Shown here: piece by piece, positions 2,766 through 7,315 of the stretch
Layout: each line of letters starts with the position of its first letter
Numbering within the stretch: position 1 is the first letter of the stretch
Assembly (NCBI GenBank): GCA_016208585.1
Contig: JACQXR010000039.1
Span: 7,163-71,162, forward strand
Direction: 5' to 3'
Source of the DNA: a candidate division TA06 bacterium
Lineage (GTDB): Bacteria > Edwardsbacteria > AC1 > EtOH8
Length of the DNA stretch: 64,000 nt
Position numbers and translations under genes: made by a program
The notes under the pieces: model-generated
Told to the model about the DNA's origin: nothing
Database searches by the model: none
The model's input: the letters and a program-made list of their open reading frames with translations, nothing else

Positions 2766-4703
2766 ATGTTGTTGTCTTTATTGGAAATAAAAAACGGCGA
2801 ATCGGGTCGCATAGAAAACATCTTCGGTGGCCCCGGTCTCCAGGCCAGGCTGGAGAGACTGGGGCTGCATGCCGGGCTGAAAATAACCAAGGTCTCCGAC
2901 TTCGGACCGGTGGTGGTGTCATCGGACAATGGACAGGCGGCCATAGGAAGGGGAATGGCCGGTCATATCAAAGTGATGGTCGACGATTTTAAGGTGCTGC
3001 TATTCGGCAATCCCAACGTGGGGAAGAGCGTGGTATTTTCTAGGCTGACCGGCCTGGGCGCCGTTTCTTCCAATTATGCAGGAACCACGGTGGAGTTTTC
3101 AAAAGGGGCCATTTGGGCCGAAGGCAAAAGGATGGAGCTGATAGATGTGCCAGGGGCCTATACTTTGGAGGCCACTTGCGCCGCCGAGAAGGTGGCCAGC
3201 GATTTCTGCTCCCGGGACCAGGCCGACCTTATTGTTAATGTGGTCGATGCCAATAACCTGGAGCGTAACCTTTATTTGACCCTGCAACTGCTGGAAAAGA
3301 AAATACCTATGATGGTGGTCCTCAACAAATGGGATATCGCCCGCCGCAAGGGCATCAATATCAACTGCGACGAGCTAGCCAAACGGCTGGGAGTGAAAGT
3401 CATTCCGGTGGTGGCCGTGACCGGCCAGGGATTGCGGGAACTGATGTCAGCCGTGGCCGCCGCCGGCCGGGAGGCAATAACCCCGCCCGTTTTCAAGCCC
3501 ATCGATCATCAGGAGCGTTGGCATATCATCGGGCATATCAGCCAGGAGGTGCAGCGAATCACCCACAAGCACCCCAGCCCGCTGGAGAAACTGGAGGACG
3601 CAAGCGTCCGGCCTCTCTCCGGGGTGCCGATCGCGCTGGCGGTGATGGTGTTTTCCTTTACGGTCATAAGATTTCTGGGCGAGGGCCTGATAAAATACCT
3701 GATGGACCCCTTCTTTAAAAACGTCTATGGCCCGGTGGTGCACAAGTTGGTTTCTTTTATTCCCTGGCCGGTGCTCCGCCACTTGCTGGCCGGTCGGACC
3801 CCGGAGTTTATGGAATCGTTCGGGGCTTTAACTACTGGGGTTTATATTCCCATGGCCATCGTTCTGCCGTATATTATAACATTCTATCTGGTGTTGGGTT
3901 TTCTGGAGGACATCGGATATCTGCCGCGCCTGGCGGTACTGCTGGACCGGACCATGCACCGGCTGGGGCTTCACGGCTATGCTGCTCTGCCGTTAGTTTT
4001 GAGCTGCGGCTGCAAAGTGCCCGGAGTACTAGCCTTGAGGGTGCTAGAATCGCGGCGGGAGAAGATATTGGCCCTGACCCTCTTATTAATGGCTGCCCCC
4101 TGCCTGCCTCAGTCGGCCATGATCGTATCCCTGTTATCTAACTTCGGGATGGGCTACGTCCTTATGGTTTTCGGCATTTTGATCCTGGTGGCAGTGATCA
4201 ACAGCTTATTCCTGAACCGCATCCTCAAGGGGCAGTCCCCCGAAATCATAATGGAGATACCTTCCTACCAGATACCCCACGCCGGAACACTTTTCCGGAA
4301 AACCTGGCTGCGCGTCAAGAGCTTTTTGCAGGAGGCCACCCCGCTGATAGCGCTGGGGGTGCTGGCGGTAAATATCCTGGAGATGCTGGGAGTGATAAGA
4401 TTGCTGGGCCGTCTGGCCAGACCTCTGGTGGTAAACGTCTTAGGCCTGCCCAGTGAGGCGATAAGCGTCATCCTCTTCGGGTTCCTGCGCAAGGATATCT
4501 CCATTGCTTTGTTAGAGCCTCTCAATCTCTCTCCCAAACAGGCGGTAATAGCCTCGGTGTTCCTGGTGCTGTACCTGCCATGCCTGGCTACATTTTTTGT
4601 GGCCTTCAGAGAGATCGGATGGAAGGGAATTGTGCGGGTGCTGGCTTTGACCTTTAGTTGGGCGGTAGCGGTGGGATTTCTTATTAATATGCTTTGGATT
4701 TAG
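2766..4703 (+). CDS. feoB: Ferrous iron transporter, a FeoA-FeoB fusion.
   Basis: The N-terminal ~75 aa form a FeoA SH3-like domain (IKNGESGRI...GLKITKV). This is followed by a FeoB G-domain (LLFGNPNVGKSVVFSRLTG) and a polytopic membrane domain. Confidence 0.85.
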   Translation: MLLSLLEIKNGESGRIENIFGGPGLQARLERLGLHAGLKITKVSDFGPVVVSSDNGQAAIGRGMAGHIKVMVDDFKVLLFGNPNVGKSVVFSRLTGLGAVSSNYAGTTVEFSKGAIWAEGKRMELIDVPGAYTLEATCAAEKVASDFCSRDQADLIVNVVDANNLERNLYLTLQLLEKKIPMMVVLNKWDIARRKGININCDELAKRLGVKVIPVVAVTGQGLRELMSAVAAAGREAITPPVFKPIDHQERWHIIGHISQEVQRITHKHPSPLEKLEDASVRPLSGVPIALAVMVFSFTVIRFLGEGLIKYLMDPFFKNVYGPVVHKLVSFIPWPVLRHLLAGRTPEFMESFGALTTGVYIPMAIVLPYIITFYLVLGFLEDIGYLPRLAVLLDRTMHRLGLHGYAALPLVLSCGCKVPGVLALRVLESRREKILALTLLLMAAPCLPQSAMIVSLLSNFGMGYVLMVFGILILVAVINSLFLNRILKGQSPEIIMEIPSYQIPHAGTLFRKTWLRVKSFLQEATPLIALGVLAVNILEMLGVIRLLGRLARPLVVNVLGLPSEAISVILFGFLRKDISIALLEPLNLSPKQAVIASVFLVLYLPCLATFFVAFREIGWKGIVRVLALTFSWAVAVGFLINMLWI

Positions 4704-4712
4704 ACAATGAGG

Positions 4713-4950
4713 CAGCCTTTAGAGTGGAGTGCGTCAAGGAGGTGGCTTTGATACGCCGCCACAGGCGGTCACTCAGCAGCCTTTAGTGTGGAGTGTGTCA
4801 AGGAGGTGGTTTCGATACGCCGCCACAGGCGGTCACTCAGCAGCCTTTAGTGTGGAGTGTGTCAAGGAGGTGGCTTCGATACGCCGCCACAGGCGGTTAC
4901 TCAGCCACCACGCAGTTTCAGGCCGGGGGCTGAGCAGGCCGTAGGTGGCC
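4713..4950. repeat. Three tandem 64-bp direct repeats followed by a terminal hairpin, immediately upstream of the GIY-YIG gene.
   Basis: The unit cagcctttagtgtggagtgtgtcaaggaggtggyttcgatacgccgccacaggcggtcactcag occurs three times head to tail. The array ends in ccaccacgcagtttcaggccgggggctgagcaggccgtaggtggcc. Confidence 0.8.
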
Positions 4951-4996
4951 TTATCTAATCCCCAACTTTGAGCAGTTAATAAAAAAGGGAATCCAG

Positions 4997-5287
4997 ATGC
5001 CTTACATGTATATTCTGGAATGTTCTGATGGCAGCTATTATACGGGCAGCACAGTATCATTGGAAAAGCGCTTAAGGGAACACCAGAATGGCTTGGGTGC
5101 AAACCATACTAAAAAACGGTTGCCGGTAAAATTGGTTTATTATGAGGAATACCAAAGGATAGTCACCGCCTTTTACCGGGAAAAACAGGTCCAGGGATGG
5201 ACCCGGGCAAAGAAAATTGCCTTGATAAAAAACACTATTGGGGAATTGCCGAAATTGGCTAAAAAGATATTCAGGAAGAAGATCTAA
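4997..5287 (+). CDS. GIY-YIG nuclease family protein (UPF0213/YhbQ-like, 96 aa).
   Basis: YMYILECSDGSYYTGST...R..EH and the QVQGWTR motif are present. An RBS (aaaaaaggga) lies upstream. Confidence 0.7.
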   Translation: MPYMYILECSDGSYYTGSTVSLEKRLREHQNGLGANHTKKRLPVKLVYYEEYQRIVTAFYREKQVQGWTRAKKIALIKNTIGELPKLAKKIFRKKI

Positions 5288-5290
5288 TCG

Positions 5291-5385
5291 GGTGGCTTCG
5301 ATACAACCGCCACAGGCGGTCACTCAGCCACCACTCAGTATCCTGCCGGGGGCTGAGTAGGCCGTAAGGACGTATCGAAGCCCCC
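5291..5385. repeat. Partial copy of the 64-bp unit plus terminal hairpin, downstream of the GIY-YIG gene.
   Basis: The sequence ggtggcttcgatac..ccgccacaggcggtcactcagccaccac..ccgggggctgagtaggccgtaagg..gtatcgaagcc repeats the right half of the upstream array. It can fold as a long hairpin (gcttcgatac/gtatcgaagc). Confidence 0.75.
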
Positions 5386-5434
5386 AGGCCCAGGCAGTTT
5401 CATAATCAACGCATCTTTTCAAACTTCCCAACCC

Positions 5435-7315
5435 ATGCCATTTCTCTCCTTTGCCAATCCCGCCGGACTTTTGTTCCTGCCCCTGGCCGGGCTGCCGCTT
5501 TTGATCCATCTTTTCAGAAGACGGCGGGCCGGCGTGATCCCGTTCCCAGACATCCGTCTGCTGCAGCAGATCCAGAACGCCGCCTTAAGGCCCAGCCGGA
5601 TCAAAGAGTACCTGCTGCTGGCGGTCCGCACGTTGGTCATCCTTTTGCTGGCCCTGGTCCTGGCCCGTCCTGCAGTCAACCTGACCTTGCCGGGCTGGCT
5701 TTCCGGGGCTTCGCAGACCTGCGTCATCATTATGGACAATTCGGATAGCATGGCGGCCATCAGTCAGGATACCACGTTGCTGGACCGGGCCAAACAGAGC
5801 GCCCGGCAAGTTTTAAAAGCGCTGGGGCCCAACGCCCGGACGGCGGTGGTTTCGGCCGTTACGTGCAGCCCGGTGGTCTGCGGGCTGGCTTCCGCCGCCA
5901 CGGTCGAACGCGCGGTAACCGCGCTGCCCCAGACCGAACTCGGCACTGACCTGGAAGGCTCGATCCAGACTGCGGCCAGGATACTTGAAACCGCAGGGGT
6001 CTCCGGCGGAAGGATCATTATTTTTTCCGACCTGCAAAAAACGGCTTTCGGCCCCAAACTCTCCCCTCTTAATAAACTGCCCGGCGATCGGCCGGTCACG
6101 GTCTATCAGATAAAACCTTTCCGGCCTTTGAACAACCTGATCTGGCAGAAGGTTCAGGTCAAACCCTTGATCAATAAAATAATCGTCCAGGCCATGGTCC
6201 AGGGAGAACGCCTGCCCCAAATCGGCTTGGCGGCCAGGGGCAAAACCATTTATCAGACAAACTCCCGGCCCGGCCAGAACGGGATGATCACTTTAAGCTT
6301 CGGGCTGCCGGACCGTGATTCGCTTTACCTTTTTACCGCCGGCGACGATTTGCCGCTGGACGACAAATATTATCTGGCTTCGGTCGATAAAACAAAAAAA
6401 AATATCCTGCTGATCTCGGACGGGCCTGGCGGCGGGCCGGATTATCTTTATCAGGCCTTTGCGGTCATGGGTCAGGCCGGTTATTCGACAAAAAGAGTAA
6501 ATACATGGGAACATCAGTATTCTAAGGGCTTTGATCTGGCCGTCATCGCCAAAGCCTCAATAGATAAGGAAATACAGGCCGGAGCATTAAAATTATTGCA
6601 TAACGGCGCGGGTTTGCTGATGGCGCCTCCAGTCAATTCCGACCGGGATCAGTACCAGGAACTGTTGAAACAGTTTTCCGACATCACCCTTTCGGGCCTG
6701 GCCGATTCTTTACCTCATAATATCTACCGCCTGAACCGCTCCGGGAATGGAGAAGATATCTTGAGCGATCTAAGCCCGGCCGACCTTGAGGGGGTCAGAA
6801 TAAAAACGTATTGGAAAGCTTTTACCCGGCAAAATGCCGAACTGACGATCAACCGATCAGACCCGGTACTGATCTTCGGCTCCGGCCCAAAATTAAAAAC
6901 GGCCGTTCTTTTGGCCGGCGGTCAGCCCGGGTTTGGCGACCTGGTTTTTAAGCCGGCCTTTCTGGTGATGCTCTTGCAGACCGCCGACCGCCTGACCCGA
7001 AAATCCGCCCGGCAATCGGCAACCGGACCAGATGAAACCAACTCCGGCGGAAACTCAGAAATAAGGCAAAAATCCGGCTGGGGCCGAATAAACGGGGGAG
7101 TATCCAGAGCGGTAAACATTGCCGCGGCGGAGTCCGATCTGACGCCAGCTTCAGGTGCGGAGCTTAAAAATATCCTCCAAAATATTTCATGGAATCCCGC
7201 AGGATCAGGTTCCGGAGCGTTTTCCGGGCAAAGTCCGGCTTCAGGGCTATTTCTGTTTTTTGCCGGGCTGATGCTCTTATTGGAGATGATCATCCGGGCC
7301 GCTTCCAAAAAGTAA
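5435..7315 (+). CDS. Membrane protein with a BatA-type N-terminal double-TM domain, a vWA (MIDAS DxSxS) domain and a C-terminal TM segment.
   Basis: N-terminus MPFLSFANPAGLLFLPLAGLPLLIHLFRRRR matches the TIGR02226-like double-TM motif. IIMDNSDSM is a MIDAS-like motif. The C-terminus is hydrophobic (LFLFFAGLMLLLEMII). Confidence 0.55.
   Translation: MPFLSFANPAGLLFLPLAGLPLLIHLFRRRRAGVIPFPDIRLLQQIQNAALRPSRIKEYLLLAVRTLVILLLALVLARPAVNLTLPGWLSGASQTCVIIMDNSDSMAAISQDTTLLDRAKQSARQVLKALGPNARTAVVSAVTCSPVVCGLASAATVERAVTALPQTELGTDLEGSIQTAARILETAGVSGGRIIIFSDLQKTAFGPKLSPLNKLPGDRPVTVYQIKPFRPLNNLIWQKVQVKPLINKIIVQAMVQGERLPQIGLAARGKTIYQTNSRPGQNGMITLSFGLPDRDSLYLFTAGDDLPLDDKYYLASVDKTKKNILLISDGPGGGPDYLYQAFAVMGQAGYSTKRVNTWEHQYSKGFDLAVIAKASIDKEIQAGALKLLHNGAGLLMAPPVNSDRDQYQELLKQFSDITLSGLADSLPHNIYRLNRSGNGEDILSDLSPADLEGVRIKTYWKAFTRQNAELTINRSDPVLIFGSGPKLKTAVLLAGGQPGFGDLVFKPAFLVMLLQTADRLTRKSARQSATGPDETNSGGNSEIRQKSGWGRINGGVSRAVNIAAAESDLTPASGAELKNILQNISWNPAGSGSGAFSGQSPASGLFLFFAGLMLLLEMIIRAASKK

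Follow-up and report, generated by a model that had tools for sequence, protein, structure and literature searches.

A minimal Slx1-like GIY-YIG nuclease gene and its probable cognate hairpin repeat in a candidate division TA06 bacterium

The DNA examined here, referred to as the window, is a stretch of 64,000 nucleotides (nt) from a candidate division TA06 bacterium (assembly GCA_016208585.1, contig JACQXR010000039.1), and the subject of the analysis is a small gene for a GIY-YIG nuclease at 4997-5287 together with the hairpin-forming repeats that surround it; this gene and all other window features described below are on the + strand. An initial sequence-only reading had noted tandem 64-base pair (bp) repeats ahead of a 96-amino acid (aa) GIY-YIG open reading frame (ORF) and a related copy behind it, an arrangement that was confirmed using Tandem Repeats Finder and Pfam. 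The array, which is the one strong array of the window, extends from 4712 to 4905, with a period of 64, 3.0 copies, 95% matches and a score of 353. Its copies had been described as perfect to near-perfect; they are near-perfect, sharing 60-62 of 64 bases with one another, but not perfect. Each comprises a spacer of ∼30 nt and one copy of a hairpin module, designated U(+).

Module U has the form of a hairpin in two tiers. In the U(+) sense, it consists of five variable bases, a conserved C, the block TTCGRTAC, 0-2 further bases, a variable hairpin, the block YACTCAG and five final bases that complement the first five, the last G of YACTCAG pairing with the conserved C. A covarying lower stem of 5-6 bp hence encloses CTTCGRTAC, the variable hairpin and YACTCAG, with the two conserved blocks forming an internal loop inside the U hairpin and the variable hairpin standing on top. 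The inverted module, U(-), reads CTGAGTR - hairpin - GTAYCGAAG, and the full element, or doublet, of ∼95 nt is made up of U(+), a short loop and U(-). A simple module is found in related loci, in which a stem surrounds TTCGAC-NNNN-CTCAG (mostly TTCGAC-TYCG-CTCAG) and which is likewise accompanied by its inverse; the complex module of the window family is this simple design with an extra hairpin in the loop.

In these terms, the window contains, besides the gene, an intact doublet, a degenerate one and two supernumerary copies of U, and the repeat motifs were found nowhere else in its 64 kb (shuffle expectation 0). Elements were located by cmsearch with a covariance model built from the window clade; the cmsearch alignment, in which both strands of the same palindromic elements were mixed, was not used for the pair counts given below. 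The first extra U(+) half-module (4741-4781; partial match 4740-4790, 34 bits), which is also seen in the single-stranded DNA (ssDNA) fold, has the blocks CTTTGATAC ... CACTCAG at 4746-4776, the hairpin CCGCC-ACA-GGCGG at 4756-4768 and a weak lower stem. The second lies at 4805-4845 (blocks 4810-4840; partial match 4804-4854, 32 bits). The third 64-nt copy forms the 5′ half of a doublet at 4868-4963 that is complete but degenerate (93.7 bits, and apparent by alignment); in this doublet, U(+) occupies 4869-4909, the central loop 4910-4924 and a decayed U(-) 4925-4963, the last having CTGAGCA for CTGAGTA and TTATCTAAT for GTATCGAAG. A leader, AACTTTGAGCAGTTAATAAAAAAGGGAATCCAG, runs from this doublet to the start codon (4964-4996) and is common to the syntenic locus L003, with similar sequence also preceding the ATG in loci L004 and L010. 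The intact doublet follows the gene at 5290-5385, with U(+) at 5291-5332 (stem GGTGG/CCACC, blocks CTTCGATAC and CACTCAG, hairpin CCGCC-ACA-GGCGG at 5307-5319), a loop at 5333-5347 and U(-) at 5348-5385 (stem GGGGG/CCCCC, CTGAGTA, GTATCGAAG, hairpin GGCC-GTAA-GGAC at 5360-5371). This downstream copy had at first been taken to be truncated; it is, on the contrary, the one intact full element, scoring 110 bits (5290-5384) versus 94 bits for 4868-4963. The two doublets are 83.5% identical, and 5291-5366 repeats 4869-4943 at ∼90% identity. The arms 5291-5304 and 5372-5385 pair, closing the downstream copy as an inverted repeat, which folds as RNA with -56.8 kcal/mol (z -6.5), its half-modules folding as ssDNA with z values of -4.6 to -4.9.

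The pairing within the element was examined using 117 distinct elements. Lower-stem cells were paired within the module in 79.8% of cases, versus 50.5 ± 1.3% after permutation of partners, with the lower stems covering 67 different 5-mers, and cross-module pairing was at 54.3% versus 53.5% when permuted. Within-module pairing was the better in 111 of these elements and cross pairing in three. The upper hairpins, represented by 166 distinct segments, have stem pairs that are ∼96% Watson-Crick. For the window clade, a two-hairpin model has 94.3% of cells paired and five pairs changed on both sides; none of 500 shuffles reached the observed values for cells paired, for both-side-changed pairs and cells or for covariation score, and the value for further pair types was reached by 2 of the 500. 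A cloverleaf (four-way junction) was suggested by the minimum free energy (MFE) fold, with TTCGATAC/GTATCGAA as P1 and CACTCAG/CTGAGTG as P3. It was rejected as the selected structure, as the variable flanks pair within halves and not across them, and the R5/Y1 positions are without cross-half covariation (AT 67, AC 24, GT 22, GC 4). Of two internal inverted repeats pointed out from the sequence, then, ccgcc-aca-ggcgg is real and covaries among relatives, whereas ctcagcc...ggctgag does not, its complementarity therefore being a by-product of two like modules lying head to head. The functional stems lie within each half-module, elements also occur alone with the gene absent, and the 64-nt units, which had been thought of as terminal repeats, are instead amplified half-modules.

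In the U(+) sense, A.C combinations exceed G.U pairs by 65 to 27 among complex modules, and by 49 to 13 in an independent set of simple modules; the wobble pairs are therefore on the strand that reads CTGAG...TCGAA. Loops on this strand are mostly of the form G-N-A or G-NN-A (GAA, GCA, GGA, GTAA, GATA). Since each doublet holds both orientations, replication or transcription bias is excluded as the cause, and the wobble bias indicates selection for folding of one particular strand per module. Orientation of whole elements, by G.T/C.A markers or by the difference in MFE between strands, was also attempted and gave results that were contradictory among close relatives, because the doublet is symmetric at the level of the module.

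The encoded protein, which is 100% identical to an NCBI entry from a candidate division TA06 bacterium, matches PF01541 (GIY-YIG) over residues 1-73 of 96, with an E value of 2.8e-17 and 63.2 bits versus a cut-off of 22.6. Residues Y5, Y15, T16, G17, R25, H29 and E62 are invariant in 18 homologues, and have catalytic roles that we presume from knowledge of I-TevI and UvrC. The nearest solved structures identified by phmmer are the UPF0213 proteins 1ZG2 (E 1.2e-12) and 1YWL (7e-11), while a Foldseek search with an AlphaFold2 model of the protein (pLDDT 89.6) returned 1zg2 and 1ywl and then the Slx1 entries 6seh, 4xlg and 7cq2, including Slx1-Slx4 on branched DNA. No NUMOD, helix-turn-helix (HTH) or other extra DNA-binding domain was found in the 96 residues, either by Pfam or in the model, which consist of the catalytic core only. 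Identity is 70-88% among proteins from TA06, Bacteroidota, Edwardsbacteria, KSB1, Ignavibacteria and others, which make up a large and unusually conserved family, and the window protein belongs to this highly conserved Slx1-like/UPF0213 GIY-YIG subfamily. In their survey, Dunin-Horkawicz et al. (2006; PMC1564403) assigned 1ywl and 1zg2 to the Slx1 family as the minimal form of GIY-YIG, described a recent insertion of a minimal GIY-YIG domain into an HsdR gene, and raised the question of whether such proteins are molecular parasites.

The association between gene and repeat was examined in 80 loci (L010-L089) chosen by protein similarity alone (60-84% identity), with one genome per species, from Cyanobacteria, Geobacter, Chloroflexota, Bacteroidota, Gammaproteobacteria, Nitrospirae and others. 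In 68 of the 80, at least one U-type hairpin lies within 400 nt of the gene, most loci having the simple module, and the density of such hairpins is 3.27 per kb near the gene versus 0.25 per kb at more than 500 nt from it, a 13-fold enrichment. Positions are recurrent also: ∼38 of the 80 (our own count from the table of loci) have a U(+) at a constant position immediately behind the conserved portion of the ORF, and in many a U(-) lies 28-55 nt before the start codon. No U-type hairpins were found in 42 more distant relatives from viral contigs (33-58% identity); close relatives of the protein were absent from the viral contigs searched, and the plasmid collection held only relatives of <50% identity, which are uninformative. 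A search for the same gene and repeat unit at other loci had been suggested from the sequence; the repeat family proved to be widespread and tightly linked to the subfamily.

The standard layout in most loci is (U+ U-)n - gene - (U+ U-)m, such that the innermost modules are inverted around the gene. Tandem amplification is lineage-specific, involving U(+) in the window and L003, U(-) in L010 and L108, and a 35-nt sub-unit in L005; among relatives, arrays lie upstream, downstream, on both sides or are absent, and either half-module may be the amplified one. At least 32 of the 80 distant loci lie in type I restriction-modification operons, next to hsdM or hsdS, and in those inspected (e.g. L014, L015, L016, L029 and L056) the gene is between hsdM (N6_Mtase) and hsdS (Methylase_S), a position that may be a preferred or safe harbour or may reflect a functional link. 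In L015, simple modules (gctccc TTCGACTCCGCTCAG ggagc) were also observed in-frame inside hsdM itself, at 974-1010 and ∼1215-1240, where they add peptides such as APFDSAQGA and resemble in-frame insertions of palindromic elements.

Both solo doublets and arrays are also commonly found without the gene. When metagenomes were scanned for three of the conserved blocks, 108 stretches with 131 distinct matches were obtained, and the closing block GTAYCGRA, which was outside the search pattern, was present in 101 of the 131 (chance ∼0.3% per match). A GIY-YIG gene is nearby in 20 of the 85 stretches that have a parsed complete element (17 of the first 80 listed), and 16 loci that extend for 1 kb or more to either side have elements but lack the gene. 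Some loci are arrays of complete doublets with a spacing of ∼95-110 nt. Elements fall in long reading frames in 20% of cases versus 79% for random windows, and are hence intergenic. A similar pattern scan of viral-contig DNA gave 12 matches that were essentially random, with the exception of a possible nested variant at the end of one viral contig (L099, 14299-14379), where one helix, GCTACGC...GCGTAGC, stands between the conserved blocks in place of both variable hairpins.

Comparison of related loci gave signs of movement. In the window, the gene and its repeats lie between a gene for a FeoA-FeoB fusion (2766-4703) and one for a BatA/VWA protein (5435-7315), both outside the element. The nearest homologue, in L003 (88% identity), is in a syntenic FeoB-gene-BatA arrangement with two U(+) modules versus three in the window. 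Homologues at 84-86% identity adjoin YjbQ and other genes, again between doublets, those in L004 and L010 (84-85% identity) being in a context other than FeoB/BatA. Both the FeoB/BatA and the YjbQ contexts are represented among genes of 85-88% identity. Four TA06 contigs representing three distinct loci (L210, L212, L213 and L214; BatA 67-74% identical) have no GIY-YIG gene; their gene order is ThiD-ZIP-BatA, and ahead of batA each has a single solo doublet, in the same place and with the same 3′ flank, caggtagtttcaaaa. This solo element is orthologous to the intact doublet at 5290-5385, so that one intact doublet is present in the empty allele, and in the filled allele the gene has doublets to its left and right, of which one is intact. 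Within one Chloroflexi genome, a stretch of 531 nt is common to two copies of the gene at 94% identity and is bounded at either end by modules. Decayed modules are common, for example at window 4930-4963 and in L213. No known transposase is present, and no target-site duplication was seen by eye, a systematic search for one not having been made. Had the repeat unit been absent elsewhere, with the gene at a conserved syntenic position in relatives lacking repeats, the notion of a cassette would have been contradicted; what was found differs, because the repeats are widespread, contexts differ, relatives have a solo element and copy number varies.

It was observed also that a ZIP metal transporter gene (L210 2550-3353, and likewise in L212, L213 and L214) holds the place that FeoAB has in the window and L003, one metal-uptake gene having been replaced by another between thiD and the batA doublet.

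On balance, it seems probable that the repeats of the window are copies of a modular hairpin element that serves as the cognate repeat of one minimal Slx1-like (UPF0213) GIY-YIG subfamily, and the best reading of the locus is of a selfish nuclease cassette with cognate hairpin repeats, akin to systems of repetitive extragenic palindromes (REP) and RAYTs and to homing. The original proposal of a small mobile or selfish GIY-YIG cassette with its own repeats is supported by comparison in its main idea, although its anatomy needs revision. A more far-reaching version, which we advance tentatively, is that the cassette represents a widespread, so far unrecognised class of bacterial selfish element, in which the hairpin would serve the Slx1-like nuclease in two ways, as its site of homing or recombination and as a non-autonomous repeat propagated by it, with a recurrent foothold in type I restriction-modification operons. 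Such a class would be the GIY-YIG equivalent of REPIN-RAYT and IS200-type hairpin systems. In that version the two-tier hairpin, with its conserved internal loop, would be recognised on single-stranded or extruded DNA.

By analogy with Slx1, which cuts branched DNA, the nuclease would bind or cut the hairpin, most likely as extruded or single-stranded DNA, the internal loop of the extruded hairpin presenting the conserved blocks to the enzyme. A doublet broken in this way would be repaired by recombining with another doublet, a process that could insert the gene at a resident doublet, converting a solo doublet to doublet-gene-doublet, and could also delete the gene between direct repeats. Slipped or unequal repair would give rise to tandem half-module arrays. 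The upstream doublet of the window has undergone decay, and its U(+) half has gained two further tandem copies. Such a mode of action would resemble that of a homing-endonuclease gene having a dispersed repeat as its homing site, and equally that of REP/RAYT systems. The contrast between the solo doublet and doublet-gene-doublet is the product that would be expected of doublet recombination, proceeding in either direction.

A number of observations weigh against this interpretation. We infer cleavage, binding and movement from sequence, and the protein, at 96 aa, has no separate DNA-binding domain. The presumed site would be duplicated by insertion, not destroyed as in classical homing, and the comparison of solo and filled loci fits loss by direct-repeat deletion as well as gain. 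Among five TA06 genomes, the doublet upstream of batA retains 81-92% nucleotide identity versus 70-83% for batA, with the spacer from the doublet to the start codon at 60-81% (window versus L003, L210, L212 and L213); conservation of the doublet is perhaps a sign of a function for the host or in cis, or else of concerted evolution, and not of a neutral parasite. Copy number is low, with one element locus in the 64 kb. The type I restriction-modification setting could point to a defence-related role, and the wobble bias and G..A loops are as compatible with folding of RNA as with that of single-stranded DNA. Lastly, metagenome loci that were found by motif cannot show conservation of the blocks that the motif required.

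It is unlikely that the modules act as RNA, being structured elements that stabilise, process or regulate transcripts, for instance through autoregulation or REP-like protection from exonucleases, in which case the link with the nuclease would be regulatory and not one of DNA cleavage. The strong covariation of stems, the preference of G.U pairs for one strand, the presence of GNRA-like loops (GTAA, GAAA) and the very high stability of the doublet as RNA (z -6.5) would all suit such a role, as would the solo doublet in the 5′ region of batA, which is better conserved than coding sequence, and the fact that called ORFs and operon mRNAs would contain modules. However, the conserved blocks are identical in both orientations, each doublet having one module per sense; arrays amplify either sense relative to the gene; and the most position-fixed module, that after the ORF, has the less favoured fold, U(+), on the mRNA strand. 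The in-frame modules within hsdM behave like DNA insertions, and known GIY-YIG enzymes all act on DNA (general knowledge; PMC1564403). Moreover, Rfam gave no matches for the window at gathering thresholds and none for 4600-5500 even at E≤10, and no sigma-70 promoter or intrinsic terminator stood out above shuffle level, with no site on the + strand, which carries the gene. The last result, together with the occurrence of arrays on either side of the gene and the amplification of either half, also leaves without support the suggestion in the sequence-only reading that this might be a repeat-regulated gene.

Rather more doubtful is the possibility that repeat and nuclease are a domesticated pair, kept for the host and inherited mostly vertically, as has been proposed for REPIN-RAYT systems, with the nuclease maintaining doublets that serve in genome structure, operon punctuation or the function of defence loci. 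The inverted doublets do flank the gene as REPs flank RAYTs (PMC3116915, PMC3337134), five genomes have retained the solo doublet, in conserved form, at a single orthologous site, just one copy of the gene is present in the window, and the site between hsdM and hsdS is recurrent. Against this, the protein is 70-88% identical across unrelated phyla, near-identical genes lie in different contexts, and at least one genome has several copies, all of which indicates horizontal spread and within-genome copying; decayed modules are, in addition, common.

That the gene merely landed beside generic REP- or MITE-like (miniature inverted-repeat transposable element) host repeats, or beside the products of local slippage, is very improbable: 65 of the 85 loci found by pattern have no gene nearby and the 64-nt array is lineage-specific, as would be expected of coincidence, but 68 of the 80 protein-selected loci have modules, at fixed positions and with 13-fold enrichment, the 42 control loci have none, and homology between gene copies stops at the modules. 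Least credible of all is a type III toxin-antitoxin-like system, in which RNA from the upstream tandem repeats would neutralise a small nuclease toxin; a small nuclease gene is indeed immediately preceded by tandem direct repeats on its own strand, but the arrays of relatives lie downstream or on both sides, or are missing, with either half amplified, the repeats are DNA-symmetric doublets, the fold is of the GIY-YIG DNase type and not ToxN/AbiQ-like, PADLOC gave no match and there is no terminator between array and gene.

The selfish cassette favoured here has features in common with several known systems. As in REP/REPIN-RAYT systems, short imperfect palindromes occur as inverted doublets that are dispersed between genes and also clustered (PMC3116915, PMC3337134, PMC3479197), the repeats flank the associated nuclease gene on both sides, and one strand appears to fold. 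The protein, however, is a 96-aa GIY-YIG enzyme and not an IS200-like HUH/Y1 tyrosine transposase, because of which no covalent strand transfer is expected. The GTAG or CGTC tag at the foot of the palindrome, a criterion for such systems (PMC3733652), is lacking; conserved blocks are instead placed inside the hairpin as an internal loop, with stems free to vary, and the element is of low copy number (one locus in 64 kb) with a gene that is seemingly horizontally mobile and sometimes multi-copy. Free-standing GIY-YIG homing genes of the I-TevI/Seg type are similarly small selfish genes between host genes, present or absent at one site among relatives and found at other sites elsewhere. They differ in that the protein described here is from the Slx1-like branch, not I-TevI/UvrC, and lacks NUMOD/HTH domains (PMC1564403), and in that its presumed target is a dispersed structured repeat that is intact on both sides of the gene. 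With no extra DNA-binding domain, a presumed target that seems to be duplicated and not disrupted, no HUH transposase and no GTAG tag, the locus belongs with neither homing genes nor REP/RAYT systems.

Slx1 and the UPF0213 proteins (1ZG2, 1YWL) are the nearest relatives in sequence and fold, and share the minimal GIY-YIG core. Slx1 works with Slx4 and has a RING domain; we know of no repeat partner for bacterial UPF0213 proteins, nor of a function for 1ZG2 or 1YWL. Slx1 cuts branched DNA (PDB 6SEH title; PMC1564403), which fits a hairpin or cruciform substrate. MITEs are likewise small, non-autonomous structured repeats that are mostly intergenic and occasionally in-frame in genes, whereas the present repeats have modular half-units that amplify in tandem and are tied to a nuclease gene. 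Rickettsia palindromic elements, too, are small structured repeats with occasional in-frame insertions in genes. Integron attC sites were considered and set aside, as the conserved blocks differ from attC core sites on inspection of sequence, an integrase not having been searched for. A search of the literature (full text, motif sequences included, though not of all journals) returned no description of the repeats or of their link to GIY-YIG proteins.

Bacterial UPF0213/Slx1-like GIY-YIG proteins are abundant and, with two structures solved twenty years ago, have no known function. That the members of one highly conserved subfamily are accompanied, in many phyla, by a defined hairpin repeat provides a concrete and testable answer, for this subfamily, to the question of molecular parasitism raised in 2006. 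Should the nuclease prove to act on the hairpin, a substrate and a role would be assigned to an orphan protein family, and GIY-YIG would join HUH and DDE as a third enzyme chemistry in repeat-propagating systems. In metagenome-assembled genomes, the same finding would account for many repeats between genes, breaks in assemblies and ORFs that are spuriously extended. A structure-specific nuclease of 96 aa with a cognate hairpin of 40 nt might also be of use as a tool.

As to the remaining features of the locus, a 71-aa ORF called across the array (4729-4944) is spurious, as had been suspected: it has no Pfam match, and since 64 is not a multiple of 3 its frame changes from each of the three copies to the next. 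The ∼30-nt spacer of the array was compared with the 3′ end of the ZIP gene, of which it might have been a remnant, and aligned no better than shuffles. ARAGORN returned 0 tRNA or tmRNA genes, and no match was obtained in the PADLOC defence or PHROGs phage libraries. Two Logan unitigs with an identical gene (L001 and L002) begin at window position 4844, inside the third 64-nt copy, indicating that assemblers cannot resolve the array and that the copy number in the window is that of a single assembly.

Other loci showed variations on the design. In an Edwardsbacteria locus with a 73%-identical gene (L008), a degenerate U(+)-like half appears to be present upstream only (2900-2960) and a U(-)-like half downstream only (3345-3420), and the gene may lie inside a single doublet. 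In two Actinomycetota loci (L063 and L088), the gene flanks are arrays of a different hairpin pair, GGTCTCGACAGGCTCGACC / GATCGAGCTTGTCGAGATC, which is possibly a third version of the module. Gene callers run several GIY-YIG ORFs through the modules (P0020, P0007 and P0060, with tails of the form AFDCAQ...EPFDTAQ), and a 179-aa gene called in L005 (3302-3841) lies wholly inside the repeat array; both the extended ORFs and this gene are probably annotation artefacts that derive from the repeats.

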